Shown: positions 3,209 to 42,053, numbered from the stretch's first letter. The stretch: 42,053 nt of DNA from Asterionella formosa (GCA_002256025.1 NKIB01014611.1:1-42053); one strand, 5' to 3'. Made by a program: numbers and translations. The notes: generated from the letters alone by a model not told the origin.

Positions 3209-3710
3209 ACCAGGAACCTGGTACCTGGTACCAGGTACCCACCATCACTGATAATGGTGTACAGCAGAAGAAGCAAAACAACCAAGCAGGTGCAGCATCA
3301 TGAAACTGCTTGTAGACACGCGCCGCACGGGCTTGGATTTGACAGGGCACGCGACTTGCTGAGTCTGATCATATGAACGCTGCGCAGGGCCCTTATGTAT
3401 GATAGCCACCAGTATTATATCTCATGTACACGATACATAGACATAAATTCCTTCCGGTATGTAGAAGGTACCAGGTACCATGGTATGATGATGATGGAAG
3501 AAAGAGCACCGTTTTGCTCAGTTTGGGTTTCGGATAACTTGGTGGTACCTGATACCTGGTACCAGGGTACCCTACCATCAGCTCGGCACGGAACGACGGT
3601 ACCAGGTACCTGGTACCCTGTAGCTGGTATGCCTTGTACTGGAACCATGCATGTAATGGTACCAGGTACCTGGTACCACCAGGGAAAACAGCTACCTGGT
3701 ACCGGTACAT
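3209..3710. repeat. (GGTACCW)n palindromic repeat cluster upstream of the 4047 gene
   Basis: Perfect palindromes GGTACCTGGTACCAGGTACC 3220-3239, GGTACCAGGTACCTGGTACC 3598-3617 and TGGTACCAGGTACCTGGTACCA 3657-3678; further units at 3467-3485, 3544-3571 and 3693-3708. Confidence 0.9.
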
Positions 3711-6976: not shown

Positions 6977-7020
6977 TACCTGGGTACCAGGTACGGTACC
7001 TGGTGCCGTATCACGTACCG
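6977..7020. repeat. GTAC/CCWGG repeat cluster upstream of IMPDH
   Basis: TACCTGGGTACCAGGTACGGTACCTGGTGCCGTATCACGTACCG, ~300 bp 5' of the ATG, at the edge of an AT-rich decayed block. Confidence 0.8.
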
Positions 7021-7559
7021 GCATGTTGCGGTGATTCACGTAGGCGGCTGATGGGCAGACACAGGAATTCAAACAGAAATACAGTTTGCTGGAGTGTTAT
7101 CGGTTTTTAAATCAACAAACACTTGTGCAGACCCCTGAAATCAACATTCGCGAAATCAATTTGAGCGAAATGTCTAAGTCCAAAATAAGCCATTTAGAAG
7201 AACAATACCAGTAGTGTAAAACGGTTTAATATACAAGAATTTAGGAAAAGAATTGTACTTTTATTGTTTTAGGCACCTACTACAAGCAAATCATATCAGA
7301 CATTATCAAATTTGTTTCAGACATCAGCAAAATTGTTTCAGTCGATTTCCTGTCAGACGATTTTCTGCCTGACAATTCTTGCTCTTGCTTTGTCACTTTA
7401 AAAAGTATATGCATCTACCACCAAACCTGCTCAGCATGTGCGTATGTACACTGTCGACTTGTGTACATTACAGCAGTGACTTAGCTACTAAAGTGCGTGT
7501 TTTAATATCATACTCTGTAGTACAATGCAGAATACAGTTCCCAATCAATATTGAATGGC

Positions 7560-7980
7560 TGATTGATAAGATGATAATGTGATATTACGATAGGTTTACT
7601 TCGATACATACATCACCAAATATGATGTATAATATTGAATAATGTTATCACATAGCTATGTAATACATTGATCATAGAACTATGGTGATTTAATAAAATG
7701 TTCATGGTATATTTTTAATCAAAATATGATTATATTAAGATAATACAATGATAATAAAATACGATAAATATGTACACAAGTGATAACATTACATCATAGA
7801 AAAAAGATTGATTAATCATAAAGTTTATTTGTTAATACATATATACTCGACTTTAAATATATACAGTAAAAGCAAATAGTTACTATGATAGTATTATATT
7901 GTGAATAGGATCTAAGCATACGGATGCGTTGATATATACATCACCATAATATATATGATTTGTGATATGAATTGATGCAT
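7560..7980 (+). repeat. AT-rich dispersed repeat related to 25600-25790
   Basis: Shared strings ATGATAATGT, CATAG(C/T)TAT..ATACATTGATCATAG and CTAAGC(A/G)TACG in the same order. Confidence 0.5.
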
Positions 7981-9618
7981 ATCACATACCGGTTTCCTCC
8001 ACCATAGTGATTGAGCCTCCTTCTTCCTGCCTGATTTCCATATCTCGAGTTCTGTTGTCATTTTTACCATATACTGTAAAGGTATAATTTCTTAATTGAT
8101 ACCTAAGCCTGGGCAAGCGGAAAGCTGAATTAAAGACTTGGCAATTCATGAAGAATGGGCAGGACATGTTTTCCTCCAAACAAAAGAGGGTGAAACACCA
8201 TAAAGGTGATCATTGAACTGTTCCAATTCCACGATGCTGCTCTTTTGGCCTATGATATGCCGAAACAGCACACCATCAATACAAATGATCCAATACTACT
8301 TGTAAATTATATGATTAAAATTCCAGCACCACGAAGAACACATGTTGATTGTAGGGAATTATCATACAGAAATTAAGTTCTGATATGTGCCCAGGATTCT
8401 CACCTGGTGCTGTTCCACATCAAACTTAAGCAACTCATTAAAAGCAGACCATACTGCAAGCTATATTGAGTCAAAAACTACGATTTCTAGAAAAAGCCAA
8501 CTATCTGTTCAAAGAATCCAAGAAATTAGCGGCATCGGTCCAAAAATCAATTTACACATATTATAACACTAAAACAGCAGCAACACAAGAATTGAGGACC
8601 AAAAGGAAGCAAGGTTCTAACACAATCTAAACTTCCCATACAATTCTCGAGCTGACATGAACAGTGCAGCTATGGAGAAATTCTCAGAGAACAACGCTAT
8701 ATTTTTTTAAAATCTACTTCCACATGAGGGAGTGACCACCACCAAAACAATCCTCCACCACCCCACCTTATATGGGCCATGGAGTGCAATGACCGCAACT
8801 CTAGAAATAGACTAGTAAGAATGCGCTATAAAAATGATTAATTTATGAAAATGTATTGCAGCTATGTTCGCACTAATGAAACCATGAACGTTAGGTTGCC
8901 AGTGCAAGCCACAATCTAAACCAATAGAAATGTTTCTTTTGTTTGGATATGGTCGGAGTCTAATCAACCAAATATCTGATATTTGGTCAATGAGGGGGTC
9001 ATTCTCGAACAAGAGCAAAGCAAATTTGGTCTTGGTTGATGTGGTGGCTAAAATATTTTTGCTTTTTCGACCAACATAATGCATCATTACATGTAATGAC
9101 TCCCAACTGCATTAGGCTTGGTATTTGGTCAATGCAGTTGAGATGCTCTTAAGCAAAACCAGCAAGAAGCAAATGGCAGAATAATCAATATAGATTGGTC
9201 TCAATATTTAGGCTTGATCAGATTAAAGCTAAATATATATTTAGGATCAACAAGCCGGTCGGGTTGGTTAATTAAACGGATATCAAGAAGAGACACATGT
9301 ATACCGGTATATCAATTTGGAATTGGAATCAGAATTGCCGGTAGGAAGTTGTACGTGGAAATAGAAATAGTAAAATTACCGCAGCAACTTGCAGGAACAC
9401 TGCCGGGTACAGGGACTAGTCTCATATACCAGTACCGGTAATCGTTTTCTCAACGGTTCGAAAATGTCCATCAACCCACATGATCACAAAAAAACCAGTC
9501 CAGACAGCTTATTATCGGTGGACAACTTGTACCATCAAGGATTCCAACAGTATAGTAGACTCCCATTCTTGTGCATTGAATAAGCTCCCTGATACTCCAT
9601 ATCTATTCCATCATAATC

Positions 9619-11353
9619 ATGCTTTCAACTGGTTTGTCGCTCGTGAAGGGATTTCTTCCAGATTGGCCCGAGTGGTGCGTGTATGCCCCTCAACCATTGA
9701 CTATTGCAGCTGTTGGCACAGCTGTCTATCGATTTATCTCTTCATGAACTAACCCATCTGCATCATTCATTTGCTTCTGGCTGATGTGAACCAATCGACA
9801 GGGCCCTCGATGTCTTGCTCATCATGACGGCGCTGCTGGCCCTCACACTCGCATTGGCAACCTTCTACACCCCTGACGATGAAAAGGACTCTACTCAGAC
9901 TACTGACAAAGTAGCACTGAAGGCTCACAAGAAACTACACAAGGAGTTCGACGCCTTCAGACACAAGTACATTGTTGTCTATCTTATCATTATGTTGGCA
10001 GATTGGATGCAGGGAACACACATGTACACACTTTATGCTTCATACAACGTCAATATCTCGGCACTGTTCTTGACAGGCTTTTTGAGTGGGGCCATCTTTG
10101 CTCCTTTTTTAGGTTCTGCCGTTGACAAGTTCGGTCGTAAGAGATCGTGCATCGTCTACCTTATCTTGGAAATTATCATTAACTGCATGGAACATTCATC
10201 CACAATGCCCATGCTTTTGATGGGACGCGTACTTGGAGGCATCTCCACAAATTTGCTATTCTCTGCTTTTGAAAGTTGGATGACAACGGAGCATCGTCAC
10301 AGAGGTTTTCCCGAAGAATGGCTGACAAGAACGTATGCAGAGGTGAGTGCCTTTTAGTTTTTGAGTTGCTAAAATAGCTTTTAATAATTTCTGACTTGAA
10401 ATTTGAATGTCAGGCTTCCATTGGAAACGGGGCCATGGCCATCTTGGCTGGAATCGTCGCGCAGATTTTGGAGGATAATTTCGGACACATTGGTCCCTTC
10501 CAGGGTGCGATTGCATTGACATCTTTGGCACTACTCTTGGTATTGGGATGGGAAGAAAATTATGGAGAAATGAAGGAAGGCGATCATGACCAATCGTCAT
10601 TGTACAAGCAGTTCATCGATGGATGGACAACAACTATGACAGACTCAAGAATTTGGAGAATTGGAATGACGCAGGCTCTTAGTGAGGGTGCCATGTACAC
10701 TGTAAGTATGAAGAAAGGAGTTGGTAGGCTGATGTGCTTATTATTGATTGCCCTATGTATCATTTACTGACTCCGGAAAAATGATACTTATTCAGTTTGT
10801 TTTCATGTGGGTCCCAACTCTCATATCACTTAATCCTTCTGGTGGAGTTCCAACTGGGTGTGTCTTTTCAGCCTTGATGATGGCCATCACCATGGGTGGA
10901 GTATTGTTCCCTCCACTTCAGTCACTTTTTTCTGTTCTTGGATCTAAAGCAACTGCCCCAGAAGCATCTGCAGCTTTTATTTACTTACTTGGTAGTATTA
11001 GCATGGCCATCCCAGCCCTATGTCTATCTGGAATGTACTTCACGGAGACCGATTACTTCAATAAGATTATTGCAAGTTTCTTGGTGATGGAATTCTCAGT
11101 TGGTCTCTTCATGCCTGTGGCTGGTACCCTGCGATCAAAGTATATTCCGGATTCCCTACAAGGGGCAATTCTCAACATTTTTAGATTGCCACTCAATGTA
11201 GTGGTTGTAGTAGGTACATATGCTACTGATCACATGCCGCATTCAGAGGTGTACAAAGGTGTGAGCATATGCCTCTTGTTGGCTGCACTTCTTCAAGCCT
11301 CCCTTATTATTGGGGCAAGTGGTGTTTCAGCTAGCAAAGTTAAGAAGGAATAA
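9619..11353 (+). CDS. MOT2: Molybdate-anion transporter, MFS_5/DUF791 (MOT2/MFSD5) family, 480 aa; exons 9619-9674, 9802-10342, 10414-10701, 10796-11353
   Basis: Family motifs LADWMQG, GGISTNLLFSAFESWM, YTFVFMWVP, LRSKYIPD..NIFRLPLN. Three GT-AG introns (9675-9801, 10343-10413, 10702-10795) restore one frame. Confidence 0.92.
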
Positions 11354-15564: not shown

Positions 15565-16070
15565 GGACCCTTCGTTAGTCGATAGACATTAGAAGAGGGA
15601 TTTAACACCATAACAGCGACAATACAACATTGTTGATTGTTCACTTCGCAACCTCAAAAGGGACGACATCAGAGGCAATGAAATGGATGACAGACTCATA
15701 GTAAATCCGGGTGTTCACCTCCAGTTGGCTAAAAATTCGATGTCAGAAGAACCACAATTTATTGTATTTGGAAGGGCGTGCTCTCATCGTTCACAAATGT
15801 TGAAACCAATCCATGTAAAGCAAAACAAGTATGCTGGCTAGCGAAATTCAAGTTAATTCAATAGCCCTAAATGGTCTGATCCACAGCCATGTATCGCTAT
15901 GTAGTGTTATAATCGCCTAAATATACAAATTTAACCGAGATACCCGTAGCCTGCATCTTCTTGCGTAGAAAATTTAAGTTTCTTCTACAGAGGGCTTCTT
16001 TGAATGATGTGGATCGAGCCGGGTTAGTCGCAGAGCGTGTTGCAACTATACTGGAACAGAGGGAGTACAT
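15565..16070 (+). repeat. Decayed dispersed repeat, copy 1 (inverted copy at 27660-28155); probable transposon relic
   Basis: Both copies translate similarly: IPVACI...LLQRASLNDVDRAGLVAERVATILEQREY here, versus IPVACI...LQQRAFLNDVDRAGLVAERVATMLEQGEY. Confidence 0.85.
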
Positions 16071-19439: not shown

Positions 19440-19505
19440 CACCGTACCAGGTACCAGGGGGTACCACCCCTGGTGGCTGATGGGACAGGACACGTACCCG
19501 GTAAC
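19440..19505. repeat. GGTACC cluster with hairpin just upstream of the JmjC-like gene
   Basis: GTACCAGGTACCAGGGGGTACCACCCCTGGT; 8-bp stem 19453-19460 with 19467-19474. Confidence 0.85.
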
Positions 19506-22611: not shown

Positions 22612-23385
22612 TTTTTTTATTTTTTTTTTTGGGGNNNNNNNNNNNNCCCCGCGCCCCCCCGCCCCGCCCCGCACGCGGGGATGAGATGTAAATTACTAGA
22701 TAGTGTGACGGTAACGCTTGCCGCAAATATATATACGTACTTGTACTGGAATGACAAAATCAGCACCAGACACTGCTCGGAAGCTTGAGTGTACCAGCGT
22801 CTCATCTAAATCCAACACCAAGCATTTCTTCCCGACATCATCTGGATGATGCGCTGGTAGGAGCTTGATTCGATTTTCTTCCTTGTCTTCAGTCGCAGCA
22901 ATTGTCGGTGAAGGTGGGTCAAGTTCATCTTTAGAATGGTTTCGTCCATCTTTAGCGACAACAGCAGTGTTTTCATCAGGAAGCAGGCAACAGCACATTA
23001 AACGAATGCTGTCCAGCAGTGTTTCACAAGGATCGACATCGATATGATCATCATCAGGTTCACCCGCTGGTTCATCCTTTTTATGGGCAGATTCAATTGC
23101 GGCAGCTGATCGAGGTGTTGATGCATTGCCATAGCGGTCAGTTTGCGTTATAAAATCCGGCACAGGAGCTCCTTCCGAAGCATGTCTCGGGGTCTTCTCC
23201 GCGCCAGGAGAGCGCAAATCAGACGACCCTCTTACTCCAACAGGAGTGGTCGAAACAGTGGGCGTCGACTTCATGGTCTGCGGAGTTCCATTTTGTTGTT
23301 TCGCGGATTTCAAGTCCTGCGTGTTAACTTTCAAAGACGGCTTTCTTCTCGAAGACTCCCCGGAATCCGAGGCTTGATCTACCAT
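22092..23385 (-). CDS. CTDSP: Small CTD phosphatase (SCP/Psr1-like, NIF/FCP1 HAD domain), 375 aa; exons 23385-22741 and 22574-22092
   Basis: [14 protein letters not shown] (DxDxT), [44 protein letters not shown] cluster before the domain. GTACGT...AACAG intron 22740-22575. Start codon uncertain because the frame is open further upstream. Confidence 0.93.
22579..22680. other. Poly-G/poly-T tract and 12-N gap inside the phosphatase intron; low-quality sequence
   Basis: A run of ~30 G, T runs, N at 22635-22646 and a C-rich stretch. Confidence 0.85.
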
Positions 23386-24846
23386 AGCTGGCTTCACTCT
23401 GCGTCGCCTCGTCTTGGAAAGACCAGTGACGGATTCCTTCTCCCGTGTTTTATCTTGCGGAGTGCCGGCCGCTTTTTCCCTGCCTATATCAACGTAAGTG
23501 ATTCTGTAATGTCGACGACTCTTTCTCTCTGTAACGGTTCTTGTGCTGCGTTGAGGTGCTAGATCTGTCGGACCTATCACATTAACATACAAGCAAAACG
23601 AGCCCAGGTTAGAAGCTGTGAGGAAACCACGATCAAAGGAGAGTTCAAAGCATACGCAGAAACGGCAAGCAAGGCGAACGCAGGAGTGGTGCTAAAAGCG
23701 CTGGATCAAAACTTGGTGAATGTATATACCGGTATGCATCATGAATACAAAGTCTCGTACATAGATACAGGTGTAATCCACTGCGATATATTGCAAGATT
23801 TCGGCACTCAACGTCTGCTAGCCGGCGTGCGTGCATGGCCAATCCAATAACATGTCAAGAAAACATTGCCCATGATGAGCGCCGTGATAGCGATCAAGAC
23901 AAATGCGTTGTACATGGCTTCTGCTCTTCGCACAAACTCATCTAAAGATTTGAAATCATATCCCCGTTCAAGAAGATTAATATACTTTGATGCTGATTCT
24001 CCCTTTCCTTCCCTTCAAAACCCCATTGACCAAGCAAATCGTTCACAACAATCTTCCAATAATGCGACCTTTGCTTACCTGACATGATATGAACGTTTAT
24101 GAATCGAATGCACTGCTACTGAGTGGCTCGATTCAATATACCTTCCTTGCTGAAACTCTTTATTAAACGTCGTCGATCACAATAAGAGACTTTCTTTGGA
24201 GGCAAATCATTATTCGTTCTCAATTACTTCTAGCACCACATCAGTACCGGCATGTATGTTCGGCAGTCGAATTGCTGCGTGCACGCTGACAATGAAGGAA
24301 TTAGCACACATTTATATGAAGGGGGCGGAGTATCCAGGGGAGTTGAATATCGAAGTTTCTTGCCAACGCCTCGTTTGAATGTATTCGTGACCTTATATGT
24401 ATATATATTTCAATTTTTGTATCCAACATTCCAATTTTTCATGTGTTTGAGCATTGCGTTGTCCTTTAATCATGACTTGAATTCGGCGATGTAAAATCTT
24501 CAGATATCGATATCAATCATATATTCGATTGGACTGTATGACCCGGGACCTGTCCGGCGTAGAGACTAAAAAGTCCACAACCTGTACGGTAAATTCCATG
24601 TTTGTACCGGTATGACATTACTCAAATTCAAAACCATATCTTCATTGATGGGGGGTCACAGCAGTTTTTCGGTTGAGCTATGGACAGTAATGCGTATAGC
24701 CAACGTTCTGGTTGTATGGTGAGAGTACAAGGTACCTGGTACCAGTATGTAAAATGATTTTACCGTATGTCAGACACTACCGGTATATCACTATCTTAAC
24801 TGTTACAACCCTCAACGGTCAACAACGGTCCACAGTCCAGTATCTG

Positions 24847-27386
24847 GAGAAGTATCTAACTGTAGCTAGTAGCTAGTATTTGTTGAACAACGGTACCAGG
24901 TACCCTGGTACCAGTATATGCGCTTTTCAGTTAATCCTTGTGTACAACTCGTTCTCCTACATAGGTTGACACTAAAGTAGTATTCAATAGAGGTGTTGGT
25001 CGAGATCTCTCCTGATAGAGTTCTGATATGATCTATGTAACCCTAACCCTATAGGGTACATGCAGTTGAGCGGAATTGCTCACTCTCCCACACTAAAGTG
25101 GATTCTTGACTGTAATTATCCTGTAAATAACAAATGTTATCCAGGTGATGACTGACATGAGACACATTCAATGTTTTGTCATACAGGACAATAAAACCAA
25201 TCAAACAACGGAATAGTGGGCAAGTTCAGAGTGACACTAACAGCAGGGAAAGAGATGCGACATTAGGCACTGCCTGACACAAGATTCAGAACAGAGGAAG
25301 AAAAGGCCAAGGCAGGAACAATATAAATTGAGACAAGTGGAGAGAGAAACATGGGGTAGCCGTAGAATCATAGATATCATTGCTAACATTTGATAATTAT
25401 ATTACGATCCATTTCAAGCTATTTTGAACAATGCTTGTGATTAGAATTATGATCATGTTTAAGATAGATATACGATGAAACAATTCACATGATAGCATAG
25501 ACTTGCGCTAATACGTTGTAGTAACAGTTTATATTTGGCGATCACGAGAAGTGAAAATAAAATGAGAAGTTTTATGATATTGATAAGAAATGTTGTTGAT
25601 CAGTTGATATACATAGTATGATGATAATGTTCTTATTATCATCATGCTTCAAGCTCGGTAAAATATTAATAAATCATCATAGTTATAGGATACATTGATC
25701 ATAGTTTTGATCCAAAAACTATCATATATGTGAAAATCCTGTGCCACTAAGCGTACGATACCCTTGATCCTATATGCATGCATGATAATTTTTTTGCAGA
25801 CGACACGACAGGGGAGCGTAAAATTTTTTGATCCTTCCTCCTATCCTGTAGCTGAAGAGCATTATCCCTTGTGAAATCCCCTGTTGTTCCACCTGTTTTT
25901 GTGACCCTTTTGGGTGTTGTTTTGGGGAAGCCAGAGATCTAGGCACAGATGCCACTAGCTGACCAACAGGAGTGTTCGTGACCACTAAAAGTTCCTGGGC
26001 AGATTCATAAAATTCAGCAGGTATGGCCCTTGGCACAGTAACCTAACCAGGCATTGTCATAGGGTTAACCCATGCATTTGTAGAAAACATGAACAGGGTT
26101 AGCTTTGTCAGTATGATAATTCATCCTACATTGAATTTCCACGCAAGAGAAACAGGAAGTGGGTTAGCAGTGTAAGTAGTGTTAGTAATATGATAACTTG
26201 AGGGGACTTATGTTTAACCGTTGTTTCACAATTCCATGCGTGGACTGCTGCAAAATTGGCGCTTGACATGGCTGCTTGTTTTCTTGATGTGTCACATGAC
26301 TGCCTTTGGCGATGCGAAGACGATCTTTTGTTAAAAATTGACTCAAGTCACTCTTGGTTTCTTGCTGTATCCACGATTGTCTTCAGCTATATGAAGACAC
26401 TCTTTTGTTAAAATTTGAGACCAGTCGTGCTTGGTTTTCTTGATACATTTCAAGATTGCCTTCAGCTGCATGAAGATTTCAAGTTAGTATGGTAAAGAAT
26501 CCGTGCTTGAGCTAATCTTTGAATGATTATGATTGACTAAACGAGTGAATGGATTGGTAAGTATTTGTTATTGTATGATTCAATTCAATCACTTGCAGCC
26601 ATGCATCGTGTGCATTGGGCACAGGAACTGACAATGACAATGACGCTCCATTATTTCTTGGACAAGGTCGCTTGATCGTCTGGATGAGGCAATGTGAGTT
26701 TGAAAAATTATTTTTTTTGAGATGGTTTCCGAAGTCCATAACCAAAATGTTACAAATTTTTGACAAATACTATCAGAGCGTCCACTGACACTGACTCTCC
26801 AAGCTTTCATAAGATCAAGTAAGATGGTGGTCCAATCACATCATCATGGCTTTTCGAAGCAAAATGTCATTTGTAGGACTGATCATAGCTATGGGTGTAC
26901 TTCAACGCTCATAAAGTCAGACAAGGCGATATCTGTGAGGCATCTTTGTATTAAGCGAAGTTATCTGCTGGAATGAAGGTCCATGTGTTAGCCATAACGC
27001 AGGATTTTATGAAAGCAATCAACAAAGCTTCCACCGAGCATCCCTGGATCAAATCTTGGTCGAAAGACTCCAATTGAGCTGTTCGGTACAAAAGAAAGGT
27101 GTGAGCCTTGATGTTAAGTCTGTTGTAATCCTTGATCAATGGGACCGTTGGAACTTGAGAGTGCATCAATATTGTTAATTCTAATTTGACTCTTTTTGAA
27201 TTCAAGCAAAGTGAAGTATACAACTACTAGAAGTAGTAGTATTTGTTGATTATATGAGCTTATTAGTTAATCCTTGTGTACAACTCCTTCTCCTATGTTG
27301 ACACTAAATTATTCAATAGCTGTTAGTCGAGTTCTCTCCTGATAGATTTCTGATCGGGGTATGTGTAGTTGAGCGAGATCGCTCAC
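24847..27386 (-). mobile_element. Degenerate ~2.5-kb element bounded by direct repeats (24847-25083 and 27211-27386); probable non-autonomous or deleted LTR element
   Basis: Both repeats share TAGTATTTGTTGA, AGTTAATCCTTGTGTACAACTC, GTTGACACTAAA, TCTCTCCTGATAGA and AGTTGAGCG..GCTCAC. On the minus strand a purine-rich AGTGTGGGAGAG precedes TG at 25082. No intact ORF; no target-site duplication seen. Confidence 0.65.
26275..26480. repeat. ~78-bp tandem repeat, about 2.7 copies
   Basis: Recurring CTTG(G)TTTTCTTG...GA(C/T)TG(C/T)CTT...GAAGA...TCTTTTGTTAAAA. Confidence 0.75.
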
Positions 27387-27659
27387 CTGGTACCAGGGTA
27401 CCAGTACCAGTACTATGCAGTATGTCGACTTCTTCTTCTAACTAGGTAATAGAGCAGTAAAATGATATGAATAGGTAAGAATTCCCGTTAATGCGAGCAT
27501 CGCATGGAGTTAACAGCACACTGACTTATTTGAGCACCGCCATCATTATACAAATTATGGATGACGCGAGCAAGTTTGATCATCCTTCAACAACCTTGAT
27601 TCATGAAACACAGTGGTATCATGTTCTCAAAGTATTCAGATGTGGATACCAGTACTCTA

Positions 27660-28155
27660 GTACTCCCCCTGTTCCAGCATAGTTGCAACACGCTCAGCGA
27701 CCAACCCGGCTCGATCCACATCATTCAAAAACGCTCTCTGTTGAAGCAAAATGCATTTTCTACATGAGTTGATGCAGGCTACAGGTATGTCGGTTAGATC
27801 TGTGTACGTAGCTGAGTATAATGCAAAATAGCAATACATGTGCATCGTTTAGGGCTATTGATTTTTGTTGGCCAGTGTACTGACATGTATGCATGCGTGT
27901 AATATCAGCTATTACTACCAAAGAGATAAAAAAAAACTAAACTAATGAGGGATGCATTTTCGGACAAAATAATCGTTCTACAGACGTCGAATGCATAATT
28001 TAGCTCAAGTTTTGTGCATGCCCAGATTTATGACAAGCCTGATGGTCTCATCAGCCTCCCGTTTGAGTTTATGAATCGAGCACCAATCAGCGATTTATTA
28101 TCGCTGTTCTGGAGATAATTCTTTTTTAATATGTCTATTGATTAACAAATGGTCG
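27660..28155 (-). repeat. Decayed dispersed repeat, copy 2 (inverted relative to 15565-16070)
   Basis: The reverse complement contains TTTGAATGATGTGGATCGAGCCGGGTT, also present at ~16000, with further collinear matches. Confidence 0.85.
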
Positions 28156-29099
28156 ACGAAAGGGGTGTCGAGCCCATATCCTCTGTATCTGCCGTTCATT
28201 TGGAGTTTCAGTTCCATGTGATTAAGTTATGCTGGAGAAAAGAATGGAAGTTTCTTTCAATGGTAGATTGCGACTGCAAAGTATAGACTCAGCTGGATGA
28301 CCAGTCATTTTGGCGATTTGTATTCTCGGGGCAGCATAGAAACACAATTTTTCATTAGCAGCCCCCAAGGGTGCATTCTTGAGGAAATGTTGCAATACAT
28401 GAAAGTCAATATTTGGTATGGTCAGGCAACAAGTAGCTGGTTGGATTTTGATGCATGGATCAAGCATTTCAATATACTCGTTTTGGTGAGAGGTCTCATG
28501 ATGCGCGCAGCTGAATTCATTGATGATTTTGTTCACCAGTAATTGTACTTGAGCAGTAATACTACTAGTAGTATGGTGCATAGTACTAGCATTTTGTGTA
28601 TTCTATGTAAAATACAAAAAGAATTAGTATTACTAAATTGTAATGTTTGAGGAAATGAGATCAATGATTTGTCAAGACTCATGTTATTGTTGCCCTCTGC
28701 ACTCAAGCTTCCAATGATCTCCTATGAATTCACCATTGTTGTTCTTACTAGAACTAGGTTTCTAAAAAGAATTAAAGCAACCAAGCCAGTCCTTTAAAGG
28801 GTCATTGAAACCAAAAACATGCATTTTGGACTTTGCATTTCTTCACTTGAGATTTTATAGTTATTAAGTTTTAATGACTATGTATTGTTGTTAAGGATTA
28901 TCGTCACCTAGTAGTTTTTAAGCGATGAAATGATGGAAAGCAAACAACGATAAGGGGACGAGATCTTTACAATTAAAGCAACAACGATGAGACAAATCTA
29001 TTTTGATGCAAATATTAATTATATTTATAATTGGAACAATATTTTGTTCTCCTACTAACCCTTACCCTAGACTCCTCCGCCATTTTAGCATCTGAAGTG

Positions 29100-29700
29100 A
29101 AATTCTAATCGTTGTCTGCAATTTCTAATCGTTGTCAGCAGATTTCTAGTCGTATGTAGTCACCAATTGGCTGGATCAGTACTCGTAAACAAAAGAGTCA
29201 TTTTGAAAATATCAATTAAATATTAATTGATATTTTTGAAATAGAGAATCAAACAAAATTTGGTTCGACCTACAGATTACCGTAGTGTAGAGTGTTGCAT
29301 ACTGTGAAAGTGTCAAATCTGTTCGTATCACCATTGTTCTGAGTTGCGCATCTATAAATTACATTAAAAAATGCGCCATCGGAGACTTCCCTTTTCGTTG
29401 TCAATAATAGTGTAATTAAAATAATTCTTTTTTGATTGTATTTTCTACGTTGTGCTTAACATATGTATCAAATAGCAAAGCGTCCTCCTCGTTCTCATTT
29501 TTCATGGAGATATACGTTAATTTTCGTCATGGTCAAGGCTGAGACGACATGATAAGGAATTCTCCAGCCGCTCATGACGACTACACTGTAGTGATTTATG
29601 TAGAGAGAAACAAATCGCAACATCGAGGCTAAAAAATTAATAATAATATAATAGCCGCGTCCACAAAGGGATACTTTGGGTACCACTTAAAAACTGTAAG
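29100..29700 (+). repeat. Dispersed repeat, copy 1 (direct copy at 41100-41710; partial at 30170-30330), with ~20-bp TTCTAGTC.TTGTCAGCA sub-repeats
   Basis: Shared GTCAGCAGATTTCTAGT, GAGTCATTTTGAAAAT, AAATAGAGAATCAAACAAAATTT, AAAGTGTCAAATCTGTTCGTA, AATGCGCCATC and CATGGAGATAT, all collinear. Confidence 0.9.
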
Positions 29701-31528
29701 TCATCGTTATTTTACTCCATCTTCCGACTAAAATATATTCAAGTAATATTGCAATCGAAACCTGATGCAAGTACGAAGTGTATGTTACACGATGCACTCT
29801 ATTCTACGAAGAAGTAATCAGATTCGATTCATTGTATAAAGCCATAAAGATCTTTTTTTTCAAAGTCATTAAGATTGTTGCATAGCGGTGGCTTACAGTG
29901 AATATTTTTCTAGTATCCATACATGATTATATGTTCACCCCAAACCGTGATTTTTTAAACTCCGTTTATTCTACAGAAATTCTTTTCGTATTACTTTACC
30001 TTTTTGCGCGATACAGTATGCTTTTTGCGCTTGCATCATCACCGAATTCTTCTGATGCATTGCATACTATGTTTATTGTATTGGCAAGGCTATTAGAGGG
30101 TGGTGGTTGTGTCTGTTAATGTAAATACCACTACTTCATAAGCATGACAAGTGTCATTCAGAAAATCTATTCGTATTTGCAAGTTCTAGTCTTAGTCAGC
30201 AAATTCTAGTTGTCATTGTCAGCAAGTTCTCAACATAGAAAGAGATTATTTTTATTGTATTCTGAAGCTAGAAGACGGTCGCTGAACCGGTTCATCAGTG
30301 AGCAAATCCAAGTCGTGTTCAGCCACTGATTCTGCAAATCGTCATCGGTCAATAAGAGTGACCGAATTTACTTCGACACAATTATCATCGCGTCTGATTC
30401 TCTTTCTCCAAATGTAGCTAGTAGGTAGCTAGCAGTGCTTCATGCTGCTCCATATGTACTTTGCTGGAATGACTAATACAAACCATAGAATAATAGAACA
30501 GCGAGCCAATAATAAATCAAAATAGCGTTAATCTTTGCTGTGGGAGGGATTTAGGGTGGTTGATTCATACTATAAATTGCGAAAGGCTTGCGATGTCTAG
30601 ACTGCTTCTTTGAATCGGCTTCAAAAGAATTGTGTGCTTCACCACCCCTCTATTCATTTACTGATGATAAACTGGCGTGGTTGTCCTCTTTCTCCCTTGC
30701 CTTAGCTGACGACTCTTCGTTGTTCGATTCAACTCTAAAGGTAGTAGATTTTAATATTCGCGTTGTCGCTTCTTAATCTATCAGCTTCGACCCCTTCGAT
30801 TCAAACGCATGAGATATACCGGTATTTGTATTACGGTGCTTGTGTGGCATGATGGCCCATCGCGTCCTTCCTTGTTTGTAATATAAAGTTTTCCTAAATT
30901 ACTTAAGGAACATTATTTCCATCGAAAACTGGCCTATCTCGTCCTGCAGGCATAGGACAATTCATTGGGAGTAGTGAGTCGGGGAGTGAGTCAAGACTGA
31001 AAAGGTGCGCATAAAACGTTCGTTACCAGGCCTTCATTGGTACTCCCTCTGTCCAATATTAAGTTGCATTGATTCGCCGGCACCACAAGTTTCTTTAATG
31101 TTCGCATATGAAGGATTACGTAGCAAATATACCATCTGTCTACAAGCGGATCGGCGTTCTCGAAAAAACCTTTTTTATGAGTTACATAGACGTGAACATA
31201 CGCTCTGTTTTTGTAATTAAATTATTGAAATCTGAATAAATTAATCCAAACCAGTTTAAATGAGTATATTAAATTCCGTATATGTACATATCGCCAAATG
31301 CTGTTTTACATTGGCTGGCCACTCAAATATTTGCGGGAAACCAAATACAACAAGCCACTATCATAATTATAACATGAATAGAATAATTGTCGTTCGGTAT
31401 ACTTTCTACGGTTGTTGCACCTACATGGACCATACTGCCGGATATTTAACCGTTACAATCCTCAAAACGAGCATACCGTCGTTTCTTCCTTCCCATCATC
31501 GCCACTTTTGGGGTTGTGAATTCCATAA

Positions 31529-31852
31529 NNNNNNNNNNNNNNNNNNNNNNNNNNNNNNNNNNNNNNNNNNNNNNNNNNNNNNNNNNNNNNNNNNNNNNNN
31601 NNNNNNNNNNNNNNNNNNNNNNNNNNNNNNNNNNNNNNNNNNNNNNNNNNNNNNNNNNNNNNNNNNNNNNNNNNNNNNNNNNNNNNNNNNNNNNNNNNNN
31701 NNNNNNNNNNNNNNNNNNNNNNNNNNNNNNNNNNNNNNNNNNNNNNNNNNNNNNNNNNNNNNNNNNNNNNNNNNNNNNNNNNNNNNNNNNNNNNNNNNNN
31801 NNNNNNNNNNNNNNNNNNNNNNNNNNNNNNNNNNNNNNNNNNNNNNNNNNNN
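31529..31852. other. Assembly gap
   Basis: Run of N. Confidence 0.99.
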
Positions 31853-32936
31853 TTGTGGATCCATAGCTTAGAGCTAGTCGCACAATAGGGCAATTGAGCT
31901 GGAGAAGAAGCCATAAACTACAAAATCATCAGCTAGCAACAAAAATTGATTTTTAAATCATAATTTATCTTTTTAAGAAAGACATATCATCATTGTCTTG
32001 ATGTTATTAACTGTTACTACCAGTACCAGCTGTAAACATTTTCCAGGAACATACACAGCAGATACATTCTATATCATATTGATATACATACATCGGTATA
32101 TATATCCCAACTATGTATGCATAGTGATTGCATATGTGGAGTCATTGGCTGGCTGTGAAGGTGCTGGTAAGCATTTTCTATCAGTGCCTCTGATTTCAAC
32201 AGAATCTTGCTCTCCAGTATCCCCCCAATCTTATTTCGATCAATAGGGTTTTTTGGATTGTTGGGGCTTCTGGATTGGGGCTTTTGGATTGCGGGTAGTC
32301 CCAGGTAGTTCGAATATTGGCCCATCCATGTTACTTTAGTAGCTTTTATAGTTATTCATCCAATACAACCACCATCGATGAAGGTGATTTGCACTGCATC
32401 ATTGCCTTATCCGTCATCTGCAAGGGGTGTCCAAATACCACAACATGCCAACTAAATGAATTATTAATAAGCTTACTATAGGAAAAGGTGGACAACAGGA
32501 AATCTTCACTACTGCACGCTTGCTTGCTTACCCGATATACCTGAGGGAAAATGATATATTTGCACTCCATGTCAAAAGAAACTACCATTCATTCGAAGGA
32601 AATGGGTTGAACAAGTCAAAAAGGAATAATTTTCATTTTTCCTGTTATTCCGCAATTTTTGTTCATCTTTGACCCTAATTTGAAATGAATTGTTGAGAAA
32701 CATGTAGTAAGAATCAGCAGCGCAAATCCATGGTGAGTTGGTGCCTTCAAGGCACTCCCCGGCCGTCATTCGATGGATGACCTGATCTACCGGTACTCGT
32801 ACGTAGTAAGTACAGGTTTTCTACTATCGGTAGATCTGGCGCTATTTTGCTTGCAGTTATCGGCATTGCGATCGTTCTCTTGGTGGCCCCTGAGTTGATT
32901 GACGAACCTGAATCTACAATACCTACTATTTCAACG

Positions 32937-35372
32937 ATGCAAGAAGGTGCCTGGGATGTTGCCTCGTCGGAGGAGATGATGGGAGTTCGTCTCTCCTTCC
33001 ATTGCTGGCCTTCGTCTCGACTAGAAGCTACACGATCAGTAGCTCCATTTGGAGCTCTCTACACACCTCTGAAGAAGTTGAATCCAGCTTGTTGCCCACC
33101 TACTGCATTGCCATATGATCCAGTTCGCTGTGCCACTGCGACTTGCAAGGCTGTCCTCAATCCTTACTGCCAGGTCGACTTTCGTTCGAAGCTTTGGGTC
33201 TGTCCGTTTTGTCTTACCAGGAACCACTTCCCTGCGCATTACGCAGACGCCATAAGCGAGACCAATCTTCCCGCTGAACTTATTCCTCAATATGTCACTT
33301 GCGAGTATGAGCTTCCCAGTGTACCCGACATGGGATCTCCTGCTTTCCTTTTCGTGGTGGACACTTGTGTTCATCCAGAGGAGTTGGCGGAACTCGCCGA
33401 TTCGCTTCAGCAAGCACTTTCACTTTTGCCAGAGCAAGCGTTGGTTGGCTTGATTACCTATGGGACAAATGTTCAGGTTCACGAGTTAGGCTTTGAGTCT
33501 TGCTCCAAAGCTTATGTTCTGCGTGGAAACCGAGAGTACTCTCCTGGTCGCGTTGGCGAACTCTTGGGCTGCACTCCCCGAGCCCCTGATCCTGGACAGC
33601 AGCAGCCAGGCCATCCTCCACAGCCCCCAATGGGACCGGGACAGGAAGTCTTGCAACGATTCTTGCTGCCAGTGTCAGAGTGCTCCTTTGTACTCGAACA
33701 AATTCTCGAGGACTTGCGCAAGGATCCTTGGCCTGTTCCCCACGACAAGCGTGTCGCTCGTGCCACTGGATGCGCTCTCTCTGTGGCAACTTCACTGTTG
33801 CACTTGGCCATTCCTCGTCGTGGCGCTCGTATAATGTTGTTTACAGGAGGTCCCTGTACATCTGGACCTGGAAACGTTGTGTCCCGCTTGAAGGAAGAAG
33901 ACATGCGTTCCCACGCAGACCTTGCGAAGAAGTCGGAACCCCTTTTTAAGCCTGCATGCGAGTTTTATGCCAACCTGGCTCACCCGACCACGAACGCCCA
34001 AGCCGCCAGCACTAAAAACAAAAATACTCATCCGAATCAGGGCAGCTGTTATCACGTTGTTGACGTCTTTGCTTGTTCCCTAGATCAAGTTGGATTATTG
34101 GAAATGAAGGTTTTGGTCGAAGCGACTGGTGGTTTAGTGGTGTTGGGGGACTCCTTCGGGCAATCTGTGTTCAAAGAATCTCTTCGTCGAGTATTCAACC
34201 GATACCCTGAAGATGATCAACAGGACGCTGGTAAGATGGCCATGGCTTTCGGCGCTAAATTGGAGGTGTTGACCAGTCGCGAGTTCAAGGTTTCTGGTGC
34301 TATCGGGCCTGTTACTAGTTTGGGAAAGCATGGACCGAGTGTTTCTGATTTGGAAGTTGGTAAGGGTGGAACAAACGCTTGGAGTCTAGGAGGTATAGAT
34401 CCACAAACGACCGTTGCCATCTACTTTGATATTACCAACCCAGGAAATACGCCCATGCCCGAAGGAAAACGTCGTTACATTCAGTTTTTGACTCAGTATC
34501 AGCACTCAAACGGACGAACTCGTCTTCGTTCCACGACCATATGTGGTGCTTGGTATAATCCTCCCGCAGGAGCTCAAGGCGACGCTGTCGCTCAGCATGA
34601 AAGTATGGCTGAAAGTCCCGTAAAGATGAGCTTCGATCAAGAAGCTGCAGCTGTTTTGACTGCAAGGATGGCCGTTTACCAGACCGAAACAGATGAAGTT
34701 GCAGATGTGCTACGTTGGGTGGATCGCACGTTGATTCGTGTATGCGCCAAATTTGCAGAGTACACCCCTGAAGATCCGTCTACTTTCCGCCTTTCTCCAG
34801 AGTTTGGCCTCTACCCACAGTTTATGTTTTATCTCCGTCGTTCACAGTTCTTGCAGCGTTTTAACTCGAGTCCTGACGAAGCGGCTTACTACCGTTATAC
34901 TCTGACTCGAGAAAACACAACTAACTCGCTGGTTATGATTCAACCAACACTCCTGTCGTATTCATTCAATGGTCCGCCTCAAGCAGCCCTTTTGGATGCT
35001 GAGAGCGTGCGTCCCGACACGATCCTTTTACTTGACACTTTCTTTCAAGTTGTTGTTTTCCACGGCGAGACTGTGGCGGCATGGAGAGAACAACGGTATC
35101 ATGAGCAAGAGGAACATGCTTCCTTTCGAGCGTTACTGGAAGCTCCTCAGTCTGACGCTCAGTTGATTATGGACGCTCGTTTTCCTGTGCCCCGTTACAT
35201 TGTCTGCGATCAACACAAGAGTGAAGCTCGTTTCTTAATGGCGAAACTGAATCCAAGTGTCACACATAACTCCAACTTGGATTCAGGTGGAGGAGGAGCT
35301 CAAGTCAACACAGACGATGTTTCTCTTCGCGTATTTATGGAACATTTAATGAAGCTTGCTGTACAAACCTAA
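32937..35372 (+). CDS. SEC23: COPII coat protein Sec23, 811 aa, intronless
   Basis: [15 protein letters not shown], zinc finger C...[80 protein letters not shown]. First in-frame ATG at 32937. Confidence 0.98.
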
Positions 35373-35605: not shown

Positions 35606-37009
35606 TTAGAGAATGGTGTGCGGAAGCTGTGTGTAGGATTGTCGTCGAGCATTACTCCGTCTTTTGACGACGAATACCGATAAGCAAAGGATAGTGATAA
35701 GAAAGACACCCGAAATAAGATGCCGCACGTGACTGGTGGTTTGAGAGAGCAAGATCAATGCTGTCATTGATTTAAGAAATGAAGGAGATGAAATGATCGT
35801 TTCAACGGGCCCAACTTCAAAACTGTCACTAATCGCAAGTCGCTGAGTCCATGTTTTCGACTGGCCTGGTTCCAAATGAATGAAAAGCTGTGGTTCAGGC
35901 GAAATGGTTGTCTTTTCGAGATAGAGATTAAATCCGTACATATTAATGGGGTCATATGGCTGCTCGACAAACTCTGCAATGTCCTCAACAATCGATGTGC
36001 CACACGCTCGGAGGGTAAAGGTACCCTTGGTGCTGAGATCCTGGTTAAAGTACGCTTTGATCCGTATCCCACGTTCAACCTCACGTTCCATTTCAATAAG
36101 AACAGTATCACCCGTCGATTGCACCGTGGCATAATTTTGTAAAGGCGTGGACCAGAAGGGCGTATCAGGCTCCTCATATAGATCAGAGATATCATCAGTA
36201 GGTCGTAAACCCAAATCCACCGAATAACCAGGCCCAATGGGCCTGCTGTCACAAGAAAAGAAGTGATGGGAATACCAAGCGGTCGAAAAAGCATCGCTCC
36301 CAAGGTTTGTTAGTGTTGATTTCACGAGAAGTACATTGTCTACCAAAGATATATCCTTCCGCAACTTGTAACCGTACTGGTTGAGAGACTCTTGGTGTTC
36401 CAATACGACGGTGTTGATGAATGGCATAGACGAGTTCCACTTCGGCTGCGATGCAAAGACATATGGACTGTTGAATTTGTAGTCGTCGGTGCTATCACAT
36501 TGCTGACAGCTGCCCTTGATGAGCTTTCCAACGCCAATCTTCAGAAAGGGATCACCAGGTTTCGCAGAGCGATAACCCAAAACACCATTGGTGACATTGT
36601 CAACTCCATGCCAACCACATCTAAAGTCGCAGAAACTACCATCATCCCCAATACCAAATTCAGAAGCTAGACCTATTCCTGCCTCGGGCCAGAGGGGGTC
36701 ATGTGGAACACGCCACAGCTCCGATCCATACAGCGAGTGTGTGCGCTTGCTGGCAATGGCGTTGCCGTTCGAATCGTGAGTAGTTCGCCTAATTGCTCCA
36801 ATCATTGAACCATGTTCAAACCGTGTCGAGCGGTAAAAGAAATCGGCAGGATTTGTATCGGAATCGATGCCTCCTGGAAGGTAAACAGTGACTTGTAGGT
36901 CGTTGTTAAGCGACGACAGGGTCACATTCGCGTACGAGGCCGTTGCCGGAAGCAACCACAAACAGGTGAGTAAACACAATCCCACACATGGATGAGCAGG
37001 CAATGCCAT
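35606..37009 (-). CDS. Uncharacterised type I membrane protein, 467 aa, intronless; luminal domain resembles a bacterial galactose-mutarotase-like family
   Basis: Signal peptide MALPAHPCVGLCLLTCLWLLPATAS, motifs YRSTRF, PHDP, GY..AKPGDPFLKIGVG and YSHHFF, C-terminal TM helix and short basic tail ending YTQL. Confidence 0.8.
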   Translation of the reverse strand: MALPAHPCVGLCLLTCLWLLPATASYANVTLSSLNNDLQVTVYLPGGIDSDTNPADFFYRSTRFEHGSMIGAIRRTTHDSNGNAIASKRTHSLYGSELWRVPHDPLWPEAGIGLASEFGIGDDGSFCDFRCGWHGVDNVTNGVLGYRSAKPGDPFLKIGVGKLIKGSCQQCDSTDDYKFNSPYVFASQPKWNSSMPFINTVVLEHQESLNQYGYKLRKDISLVDNVLLVKSTLTNLGSDAFSTAWYSHHFFSCDSRPIGPGYSVDLGLRPTDDISDLYEEPDTPFWSTPLQNYATVQSTGDTVLIEMEREVERGIRIKAYFNQDLSTKGTFTLRACGTSIVEDIAEFVEQPYDPINMYGFNLYLEKTTISPEPQLFIHLEPGQSKTWTQRLAISDSFEVGPVETIISSPSFLKSMTALILLSQTTSHVRHLISGVFLITILCLSVFVVKRRSNARRQSYTQLPHTIL

Positions 37010-37126: not shown

Positions 37127-37760
37127 AGTACCGGTCCCTTACCAGGGTAACAGTTACCTTGTACCCCCGGTAACTGGTACCAGGTACCAGGTACCACCGG
37201 TTCCCCTTTGTTGGCTGTGTTTCATATTCCTATTTACATGCCAGGGCATCTGTACATACATACACACACAAAGTAACCATCCGGTAAACTCCTTCGTACT
37301 AGGTACCTGCTACCAGGGTAAGGTACTTACCGTACATATGAGAAATATCGGTATAAACTGGTTGGATATCATCTACCGTACCGGTATTATACTATTATTA
37401 TTTCTGTTTTTACCGGGGATCTACCAACCGGCATTTTCGTAACATCTTGTACAGGTACGGTACCACCAATAGTGTACCTTGTACCTGGTGCTTGCTTTAC
37501 ATTGTGCTTACCGCTAAGATACTAACTACCAGTACCAGGTATTAAAGACCGCCCAATTGTGTGCAATCGAATCCTTTTCCTGTTCTTGTCGTGGATTCGT
37601 CGGTTGCATACCGGTATACCTTTACCAGTTGCGGTCATTTTGCTTGAACTAACATTTTAGTCTTGGATAAAAAGAGCTCAATCTTTTGTTCCAGAAAAAT
37701 TACCGCAACTTGCTTTGTACCTGGTGGAGGGGGATACTGAGTACTGGTGGTACCAGTCAC
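37127..37760. repeat. Extended GTAC/CCWGG cluster upstream of the 37009 gene
   Basis: CTGGTACCAGGTACCAGGTACCACCGG near 37174-37200, plus many TACC/GGTA units through ~37755. Confidence 0.85.
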
Positions 37761-38005
37761 CTTGTTTGTACGAGAATGTGTTATATTATCCCCTCCATTA
37801 CCAATGGATACCATGTCACCTTGTTTGTACAATAACGTGTTCTAGCCTAAGAACGAGGTGACAATAAATACTAATGTCACCTTGTTTGTTCGAGAATGTG
37901 TTATTGCGTCCACTCCATCACCAGTAGATACAAATGTCACCTTTTTTCCGAGAAAGTGTTGTTGCGTAGTACCCTCCATCACCTTTTTTAGGTATACCAA
38001 TGTTA
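37756..38005. repeat. ~60-bp tandem repeat, four copies
   Basis: Units begin GTCACCTT(G/T)TTT; three contain CGAGAA(T/A)GTGTT...CTCCAT(T/C)ACC. Confidence 0.85.
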
Positions 38006-38010
38006 CTCCC

Positions 38011-38276
38011 TATCCCTATGATGGACATGATTAAAATTCAAATCAATTGTATACATAGTAGGTTTTACTTACAAAAATATCTTTGCAACATATATAGCTA
38101 GGCATCACTATGATGGACATGATTTAAATTCAAATCAATCATATACTACCTCGGTACATACGTTTTCATGCAAAAATATCTGTGCAACATATACAGGTAT
38201 CCCTATGATGGGCATGATTTAAATTCAAATCAATCATATATGTACATTTACATACAAAAATATCTGTTCAACATAT
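38011..38276. repeat. ~80-95-bp tandem repeat, three copies
   Basis: Units share CTATGATGG(A/G)CATGATT(A/T)AAATTCAAATCAAT and CAAAAATATCT..CAACATAT. Confidence 0.9.
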
Positions 38277-40659: not shown

Positions 40660-40850
40660 TACCGTACCTGGTACCCTGGTACCAATACCATTCATTCATT
40701 ACCGTGGGTATGATATACCGCAGTGCCCAATGTACGTCATACATGATACCAGGTGCCATGTACCAAGTAAATCTTCCGGTACCTGGTACTCCGAACAGGT
40801 ACCCTGGTACCGGTACTCGGAGTACTGGTACCAGGTACCAGGAAGGTCCA
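40660..40850. repeat. (GGTACCW)n cluster upstream of the Rdx-like gene
   Basis: GTACCTGGTACCCTGGTACCA, GGTACCTGGTAC, CAGGTACCCTGGTACCGGTAC and CTGGTACCAGGTACCAGG. Confidence 0.9.
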
Positions 40851-41099
40851 GTAGCGCACGTTCAATGCGCACCTTTTCAGTTTCGACGCACTCCCAATGG
40901 ATCCTCTCATGCCTGCCAGCCAAGATGGACTGGCTTTTCATTCCGAACTCTCTTACCAGTAAGTAACTTTCTTTAATGTTAAATTATTATTCAATAAATC
41001 CAAGTCGTGTTCTGATCATCGAAATCTTGTTCAGCTACACTACTGGTAATGGTATTCAGCAACTTGATGATGGTTCTCTAATGGAATTCACCAATAAGC

Positions 41100-41710
41100 A
41101 ATTTCTAGTCATAGTCAGCAGTTTCTAGTTGTAGTCAGTCAATTCTTGTCATTGTCAACAAATATTGTTGTCAGCAAGTTATAGTCATTGTCAGCAGATT
41201 TCTAGTTGCATGTAGTCACCAGCTGGATCAGCACTCATAAACAAAGAGTCATTTTGAAAATGTCATTGGACTTTTAATCGACATTACTTAAGCAAATAGA
41301 GAATCAAACAAAATTTCTTTCGATTGACATATTACCATTGTAGCATGCTGTGTACTGTAAAAGTGTCAAATCTGTTCGTAACTTCGTCATTTTGAATTGT
41401 GCATCAATTAAACTACATGAAGCAATGCGCCATCTGCGACTTAAAATTTCGTTGTCATTATTAGTGATATTACAATTATTATTTACGATTGTATGAATCT
41501 ATGTTGTGTTAGATGTATTCACCAGATAGCATTTTCCATGGAGATATTTGTTATTTTCGACATGTCAAGGTGGAGATGGCATGATGCAGGTTTCTCCAGC
41601 AAGGCACAAGAACTACACTCAAGTGTTTTATGCATTGCAACATCTAAGCTAAATAATAATATCCAAGCTTCTATAAGGGCTACCTCAGGTACCAGGTACC
41701 CTGAAATATA
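41100..41710 (+). repeat. Dispersed repeat, copy 2 of 29100-29700
   Basis: Collinear matches over ~600 bp, including the ~20-bp sub-repeats. Confidence 0.9.
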
Positions 41711-41941
41711 GACCAGTATCCTATGTAGCCATAGTATGTACCTGTGTGATATGTGATATACTATGTAGGATATTGCAAATAGTATAGCGTTGGACGTGTC
41801 TGTTAGGCTGTTAATGTCGACAGGTGTCCGAAGTCTAGATGTAGTCTGCGGAATGTCTAAATGGAAATAGACCGGATTTATATAGCAAAATAATATGCAG
41901 ACGAGCGGCGGGAGAAAGATCTTGACCGGTCATTCCAGGGC

Positions 41942-42040
41942 AGTACCTGGTACTGGAGCGCGCTAGAGTAGGCGCCATATATTTCAACACTACTGGACCT
42001 TCCTTGTACCTGGTACCAGGTACCAGGTACCGGTACTACT
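41942..42040. repeat. (GGTACCW)n cluster at the window end
   Basis: AGTACCTGGTACTGG and GTACCTGGTACCAGGTACCAGGTACCGGTAC. Confidence 0.85.
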
Positions 42041-42053
42041 CGGCGCTATCTTA

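Follow-up and report, generated by a model that had tools for sequence, protein, structure and literature searches.

DNA transposons that target TA, the MITEs, and the footprints left by such elements are textbook material, and mariner-like elements have been reported in diatoms. Excision of mariner and Stowaway elements leaves the target site duplication together with a short sequence from the element end (PMC4561436). In Tc1/mariner transposition the transposase cuts the non-transferred strand within the element, a few bases from its end, and the footprints correspond to the 2-4 nt with which the element begins or ends; in Sleeping Beauty the scar is TAC(A/T)GTA, i.e. TACAGTA or TACTGTA (PMC6943129). 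Among the element ends that have been described, the 5' inverted repeat of the mariner Mos1 begins CCAGGTG after the TA (PMC2642840), and the end of the rice Stowaway element 14T32 reads CTCCCTCCGTCCCAG (PMC4561436).

The locus considered here lies in a 42,053-nt stretch of DNA from Asterionella formosa, which was analysed whole and is called the window below. Two copies of a short dispersed repeat in the window differ at one site. Copy 1 reads TATTTGTTGA, then a 28-nt block, ACAACGGTACCAGGTACCCTGGTACCAG, at 24887-24914, and then TATATG; copy 2 reads TATTTGTTGA-T-TATATG at 27240-27256, where the lone T is position 27250 and GTAC is absent. Both sequences are present as an earlier note on this DNA had read them, and so is the array that it had placed against the right end of copy 2, which follows directly after the last aligned base (27391-27415) and is crossed by a contig of DNA run X4 with 0 gaps. 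The TA of the empty site is observed directly and falls exactly at the right junction of the insert. The array neighbouring copy 1, at 24726-24751, has variant words in the same order as the filled site. The GGTACC arrays of the window are given here about an even chance of being stacked excision scars of the Tc1/mariner type, composed of duplicated TA and transposon tips. The coordinates of the features discussed are collected in Table 1.

Table 1. Positions of genes, repeat copies, arrays and element ends in the window; arrays are written in TA register.
Feature	Position	Strand	Remarks
Copia RT (RVT_2) fragment	857-2167		Pfam
Six-array cluster	3209-3708		upstream of ORF at 4047
IMP dehydrogenase gene	4999-6585	-	ORF, domain scan
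Array	6977-7019		upstream of IMP dehydrogenase gene
Stowaway-like end	16056-16067	-	TA-CTCCCTCTGT
Array	19444-19465		~110 nt upstream of ORF at 19574
Neighbouring array	24726-24751		TA-CAAGG-TA-CCTGG-TA-CCAG-TA-TG-TA; possible repair template
9-mer AACAACGGT	24821-24829	+	exact match to left junction of insert, 24886-24894
Copy 1 of short dispersed repeat	24849-25083	+	old, decayed; right tip unrecognisable
Filled site	24887-24914	none	(GA)A-CAACGG-TA-CCAGG-TA-CCCTGG-TA-CCAG-TA(TATG)
Copy 2 of same short repeat	27213-27390	+	near family consensus; ends ...GCTCACCTGG, then TA
Empty-site TA in copy 2	27251-27252		TTGAT-TA-TATG; candidate insertion target
Array abutting copy 2	27391-27415		TA-CCAGGG-TA-CCAG-TA-CCAG-TA-C-TA
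Stowaway-like end	27661-27672	+	TA-CTCCCCCTGT
Third E1-type tip	31026-31040	-	CCAATGAAGGCCTGG; between two TAs, outside arrays
Stowaway-like end	31041-31052	+	TA-CTCCCTCTGT; its TA common to E1-type tip at 31026-31040
Sec23/24 ORF	32847-35372		domain scan
Array cluster	37155-37754		upstream of ORF 35606-37009(-)
Arrays outside left end of E1	40660-40837		TA register
E1, inverted-repeat element	40838-42006		1,169 bp (1.17 kb); TIRs 40838-40854 (CCAGGAAGGTCCAGTAG) and 41990-42006
Array outside right end of E1	42007-42040		TA register; window ends at 42053

The long ORFs of the window are eukaryotic and nearly without introns, and a NIF phosphatase and an MFS_5 transporter are also among them. 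The IMP dehydrogenase protein is 75-92% identical to its relatives, and all relatives with a named source organism are diatoms. Public runs containing 23600-28600 come from 14 studies and bear metagenome labels (freshwater, lake or algal). Among 88 ORF translations of the window, the Copia reverse transcriptase (RT) was the sole transposon-related Pfam match and no transposase or DDE/D domain was found; the ORFs of the repeat-mosaic region at ~24.7-31.5 kb had no Pfam matches. Because an Rfam scan of the window gave 0 matches and a tRNA scan 0 genes, there is no indication of a SINE. Neither an LTR pair nor LINE tails were supported as readings of the two copies, and the hairpin GAGCGAGATCGCTC close to the end of copy 2 was likewise considered as part of a Helitron without support: no RT or endonuclease ORF was found there, and the internal region at 26.5-27.1 kb is low-copy by contig depth.

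Copies 1 and 2 are 83.2% identical over 113 nt, and four further indels (2, 3, 4 and 24 nt) separate them. Logan contigs of four DNA runs (four studies) were aligned to 22647-31528 at 80% likeness, with 47,038 contigs placed for run X1. Summed word depth, which is not equal to copy number, was 647,317 in X1 for the bin of copy 2 (27102-27398) and 440-1,160 for single-copy bins (22647-24428); it was 1.7-1.9 million in the bins at 25320-25913 and about 7,000-11,000 over the part of copy 1 at 24980-25063. The region at ~24.7-31.5 kb clearly consists of dispersed, highly repeated elements in a mosaic. The two copies had been called direct repeats; going by the X1 depth, they are old members of a very abundant dispersed family and not a local duplication. 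Further diverged repeat pairs occur in the window and agree with the mosaic picture. The word CCAGGTGA at 25141 was tried as the start of the very abundant repeat at 25.1-26.2 kb and rejected, the 8-mer having 5 exact matches in the window, which is about the chance number.

The same contigs bear on the polarity of the indel. In X1, 226 contigs start their fit at 27226 and hence cross 27249/27250 in the empty form. Indel rows with 28-53 contigs were found at 27206-27224 and none at 27249/27250 (among the best 12 of 331 rows), nor was there a cluster of loose ends at 27249/27250 among the rows listed for X1 contigs; had the share of family members with a 27-nt insert there exceeded roughly one in ten, a listed row would be expected. 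There is no contig row for the array 24887-24914, and this missing row carries no weight. Contigs from the rest of the family thus read across the empty site, and on this indirect evidence, drawn from the best-supported rows, the array is taken as derived in copy 1, and was probably gained by copy 1 rather than lost from copy 2. Of the earlier claim that the motif was added after the repeats duplicated, the addition to copy 1 is thus probable, but the duplication gives way to old dispersed transposon copies. Another indel has the reverse polarity: in one contig, 25029 and 27360 are linked by way of 27 letters that resemble the AACCCTAACCC piece of copy 1, and copy 2 therefore lost that segment.

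GGTACC occurs 50 times in the window, whereas dinucleotide-preserving shuffles gave a mean of 4.53 and a largest count of 9 (0/100 reached 50), and it is the commonest non-N hexamer; 16 clusters have at least two sites. The sequence GGTACCWGGTACC reads as ...GG-TA-CCWGG-TA-CC... when cut at TA, and every array is in this register, as a C..G word between one TA and the next. The whole window was cut at each TA, and 200 first-order Markov simulations served as the comparison for the short spacers. Enrichment is confined almost entirely to C..G words: CCWGG (25 observed, 0.19 expected), CCGG (14 observed, 0.23 expected), CCAG/CTGG (14 observed, 0.84 expected), CCAGGG/CCCTGG (8 observed, 0.04 expected), CCG/CGG (9 observed, 2.03 expected), and CAAGG/CCTTG (3 observed, 0.28 expected). 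Both the TA register and these word statistics are direct observations. None of the 61 array words lies within the long ORFs (14,900 coding bases), and 23 of the 24 chains of at least two array words are outside long ORFs. Spacings of 5, 6, 7, 8 and 10 nt coexist, as do spacers of 1-6 nt between TAs, and in four of the six three-site arrays the spacers differ from each other (T,A; A,T; A,T; A,CT), the remaining two being A,A.

TA-flanked elements with tips of this kind can likewise be observed directly in the window. The ends of E1 are TA-CCAGGAAGG... and ...CCTTCCTTG-TA, and its 17-nt TIRs match at 16/17 positions and begin CCAGG/CAAGG; the match in an inverted-repeat scan was 30 nt long and 97% complementary. 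The flanking TAs are at 40836-40837 and 42007-42008, and arrays go on in register from both. The third E1-type tip is bounded by TA outside any array, so that the tip belongs to the element. While both TIRs of E1 are in the window, only the right end of the short repeat is, and its left end is taken, with uncertainty, from a consensus of loose contig ends. Copy 2 ends ...CACCTGG-TA (27384-27392), where summed depth drops from 647,317 to 3,736, and the array then follows in register. The loose-end consensus left of 27226 reads ...AAAG TA CCAGGTG AAGTATCTA and matches the right end of copy 2 as its inverted complement; with a median loose end of 12 nt, the distal letters of the consensus rest on few contigs. 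The bases upstream of TA-CCAGGTG in this consensus also resemble copies 1 and 2, and the left end of the short repeat appears not to be clean, so the repeat may be longer or may be composite. Ends of a second type, CTCCCYCTGT, occur in three instances in the window, each preceded by TA, and from these three Stowaway-like ends it follows that TA-targeting elements are present in the window. For the Stowaway-like copies, no right end was found in the window. A strict scan for pairs of TA plus TIR (first 5 bases identical) missed E1, gave weak pairs only, and was left unused. Nine-mers shared among array flanks were rejected as a test, which is confounded by flanks that physically overlap.

If the arrays are stacked excision scars, elements of the E1 or short-repeat kind would insert at TA, and their excision would leave the TA duplication and tip bases, sealed by end-joining. 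Because two identical overhangs, in this case CCAGG, would pair except at the middle base, the expected scar would be TA-CC(A/T)GG-TA, and shorter or longer joins would give CCGG, CCAG/CTGG, CCG, and CCCTGG. Such excision would be expected to leave TACCWGGTA, TACCGGTA, and TACCAGTA, and the word spectrum expected from CCAGG...CCTGG tips is the spectrum observed. Repeated hits at or beside one place would then stack the scars into arrays; mixed spacers within arrays are predicted by independent joins and not by slippage. The 28-nt block, which sits inside an old copy of another element, would be a stack of four words with a 2-nt loss at the left edge, placed at the TA of TTGAT-TA-TATG and parsed as GA(TT lost)A-CAACGG-TA-CCAGG-TA-CCCTGG-TA-CCAG-TA-TATG; repair may have copied the array 160 nt upstream. 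We infer that excision would have made the words and that several events were needed to stack them. The addition had been called de novo, at a site with no seed. That problem is removed because the empty site TTGAT-TA-TATG supplies the TA, and CAACGG, CCAGG, CCCTGG, and CCAG, each then followed by TA, are the tip words of the TA-flanked elements in the window.

Several features count against excision scars. The commonest word, CCWGG, has 5 tip bases, which is more than the published 2-4 nt; TA-CCAG-TA/TA-CTGG-TA (14), TA-CCGG-TA (14), and TA-CCG/CGG-TA (9) fit a 2-4-nt scar, but TA-CCWGG-TA (25) has 5 nt. The left edge, GA-A-CAACGG, fits only with the assumed 2-nt loss and an atypical word, and stacking requires repeated hits at one place. 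The window yielded no transposase gene, and no pair of element and scar alleles was seen among the contig pieces.

Insertions templated by polymerase theta at repaired breaks are copied from nearby sequence and have microhomology at their junctions. A patch of this general kind, in which a break in copy 1 was repaired from DNA no more than 160 nt upstream by microhomology-mediated end joining or template switching, is rather unlikely as the account of the block. The block would be a local copy of the 24726-24751 array and of a piece of 24821-24829, which is compatible with an earlier origin of the arrays as scars. All 28 insert bases, together with the junction bases, are tiled by exact matches of at least 9 nt from the 400 nt upstream, and 0 from the 400 nt downstream; the local upstream sequence is the best 400-nt tile, with 32 positions compared with no more than 26 elsewhere in the window. 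Exact matches include AACAACGGT at 24821-24829 and CCTGGTACCAGTAT at 24735-24748, the array at 24731-24743 tiles in either orientation, and both arrays begin with the rare word CAA(C)GG and end CCAG-TA-T. Since the filled array is like its neighbour in word order, it may be a copy and not an independent stack. However, the arrays are of low complexity and the tiling is mostly a trivial one of array against array, with ~6 non-array bases informative, and a donor with two full sites for an insert with three would have been copied inexactly. Going by the upstream tiling, the templated repair put forward in the earlier note may have played a part, although most of that match is of low complexity. 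Like polymerase-theta insertions, the insert can be pieced together from short stretches close by that overlap by 1-3 nt; unlike those insertions, its motif is widespread and equals transposon tips, neither of which is predicted by generic templated repair.

It is improbable that (GGTACCW)n is an ordinary micro- or minisatellite that grows by slippage or hairpin formation, with transposons that prefer the arrays or tips that coincide with them. Tandem Repeats Finder does find period-7 arrays, the units at array edges are degenerate, and the arrays are self-complementary. Nevertheless, copy 2 offers no unit at the empty site on which slippage could act. In line with the earlier note, slippage of a pre-existing unit is not needed at that site, and the arrays show the mixed spacers and coexisting spacings given above instead of identical tandem units that change as wholes. 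In addition, the E1-type tip keeps CCA beside TA outside any array.

Two further explanations are very poor candidates. In the first, breaks would receive the motif de novo through telomerase-like reverse transcription from a GGUACCW template. In its favour, the motif is in strong excess and present at a site without a seed, and arrays lie at the borders of repeated segments, but the units vary in length and in the W base, unlike template-copied repeats, the only RT found in the window is the Copia fragment, and TA-flanked elements resident in the window have these same words as their tips. The telomerase-like activity named in the earlier note is thus not indicated, and either it or de novo synthesis is unlikely to lie behind the addition to copy 1. 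On the best reading, slippage and a telomerase-like adder both fit worse than excision scars. In the second, the arrays would be selected cis-regulatory sites, putative binding sites for a GTAC factor clustered in promoters, and four ORFs (4047, IMP dehydrogenase, 19574, and 35606-37009) do have arrays 110-840 nt upstream, but arrays are also found in or between decayed repeats far from genes (24726, 24894, 27391, and 40660-42040), and a compact genome puts any intergenic insertion near a promoter.

No mention of GGTACCW arrays or of stacked footprints was found among the listed matches when the literature was searched by sequence and by topic. In these listings, array 7-mers appeared, by title, only in cloning or primer contexts, GGTACC combined with repeat terms gave nothing relevant, and no title from the literature on footprints, mariner, microsatellites, or MITEs dealt with stacked scars; array 13/14-mers gave an unrelated match only. 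The 20-mer GGTACCWGGTACCWGGTACC had 0 loci in viral contigs. In prokaryote genomes it was found in at least 110 stretches, all of them bacterial and all in the self-complementary form, with no diatom DNA. In metagenomes, a 19-mer taken from the repeat's conserved core matched a single locus, which is alike only over the 19-mer and was rejected as a chance match.

If the arrays are stacked excision scars, then one of the strongest sequence biases in the genome of this freshwater diatom is a by-product of cut-and-paste transposition, and a new motif-adding enzyme is unnecessary. Excision scars would not be rare single events and could accumulate in intergenic and promoter DNA as arrays of palindromic sites. 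Past transposon traffic could then be followed with the arrays as a simple marker; the arrays would also generate indel variation near genes and provide a testable system for the target choice of transposases. A speculative extension, which we regard as doubtful, is that the scars act as decoy ends: CCTGG-TA-CCAGG would mimic an abutted right and left end, the transposase would recut it or insert there, and each repair would add a unit, so that the arrays would propagate themselves, come to occupy many promoters, and make their hexamer the most frequent one in the DNA of this diatom.

The closest described systems resemble this locus in different respects. Like Stowaway MITEs and plant mariner-like elements (Osmar/14T32), the elements here have a TA duplication and are short and non-coding with TIRs, and the three diatom ends TA-CTCCCYCTGT(T)CCA are close to the Stowaway 14T32 end (PMC4561436). 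Unlike in Stowaway, the array words match a different tip (CCAGG...) and not the Stowaway-like one, and a diatom is the host. The end of the short repeat, TA-CCAGGTGA (27383-27392, minus strand), begins CCAGGTG after TA like that of Mos1, but just 7-8 bases are common to the Mos1 inverted repeat and the short repeat (PMC2642840) and no transposase was seen in the window, so that any kinship would be conjectural. With the footprints of Sleeping Beauty and of Tc1/mariner elements generally, the array words share a TA duplication that is kept, a few tip bases between the TAs, and a middle base that is A or T, and the variant forms are like those that scars acquire by error-prone end joining (PMC6943129). 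In Sleeping Beauty this A or T reflects the central mismatch left when two identical overhangs pair, and the same would hold for the array words. Compared with Sleeping Beauty, which has 3 tip bases, the main word here has 5 (CCWGG), and unlike the scars of that system the putative scars of the window are stacked 2-5 deep and common enough to make GGTACC its commonest hexamer.

Copies 1 and 2 (24849-25083 and 27213-27390) of the abundant short dispersed repeat differ elsewhere than in the 28-nt GGTACC array. In copy 1, AACCCTAACCCTA at 25041-25053 comprises two telomere-type units and lies in a 24-nt piece that is absent from copy 2. Because a similar piece is present in another family copy (the joint filler, among the aligned contigs), this piece was lost by copy 2. 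At 27207-27219, copy 2 reads AAAGT/GAAGTAT while the loose-end consensus of the family has AAAGTACCAGGTGAAGTAT; the 7-nt difference is exactly one GTACCAG unit and makes a second filled/empty site within the short repeat element.

The surrounding DNA is rich in other repeats. The very abundant dispersed repeats in two stretches (listed below) reach a summed word depth of up to 1.9 million in the DNA run X1, versus approximately 1,000 in unique DNA, and no Pfam-recognisable ORF was found in them. In the metatranscriptome run X11, 26% of the words sampled from the ORF-poor region 23600-28600 are present, so parts of this repeat mosaic may be transcribed. A gap of 324 N is located at 31529-31852, within a repeat-rich stretch. 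Within the likely intron of the NIF phosphatase gene, the segment 22580-22672 contains a 31-G run, C-rich repeats and a gap of 12 N, which probably marks a place where assembly failed at a homopolymer. The MFS_5 transporter gene (9785-11353) contains three ORFs in differing frames and is split through short introns or frameshifts.

Repeat features and Stowaway-like ends in the window
Feature	Position	Strand	Description
Very abundant dispersed repeat	25185-26200		summed X1 depth
Very abundant dispersed repeat	29100-31528		summed X1 depth
Tandem repeat, period 95 nt	38011-38273		intergenic or repeat DNA
Tandem repeat, period ~60 nt	37751-37983		intergenic or repeat DNA
Tandem repeat, period 77 nt	26275-26476		intergenic or repeat DNA
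Tandem repeat, period 20 nt	41097-41218		subterminal, inside inverted-repeat element E1
Stowaway-like end	16056-16067	-	TA/CTCCCYCTGT(T)CCA
Stowaway-like end	27661-27672	+	TA/CTCCCYCTGT(T)CCA
Stowaway-like end	31041-31052	+	TA/CTCCCYCTGT(T)CCA

At least 110 stretches of bacterial DNA (prokaryote genome contigs, loci L002-L081) carry the self-complementary 20-mer GGTACCWGGTACCWGGTACC, frequently several times in one genome, with hosts including Acidimicrobiia, Gemmatimonadaceae, Planctomycetota, and Omnitrophota. The bacterial sequence is probably a REP-like GGTACC hairpin repeat and has no relation to the diatom arrays. No right ends that pair with the three Stowaway-like ends were found in the window. 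The sequence of these three ends strongly resembles the terminal inverted repeat that Stowaway MITEs carry in plants, as in the end of rice 14T32 (PMC4561436).
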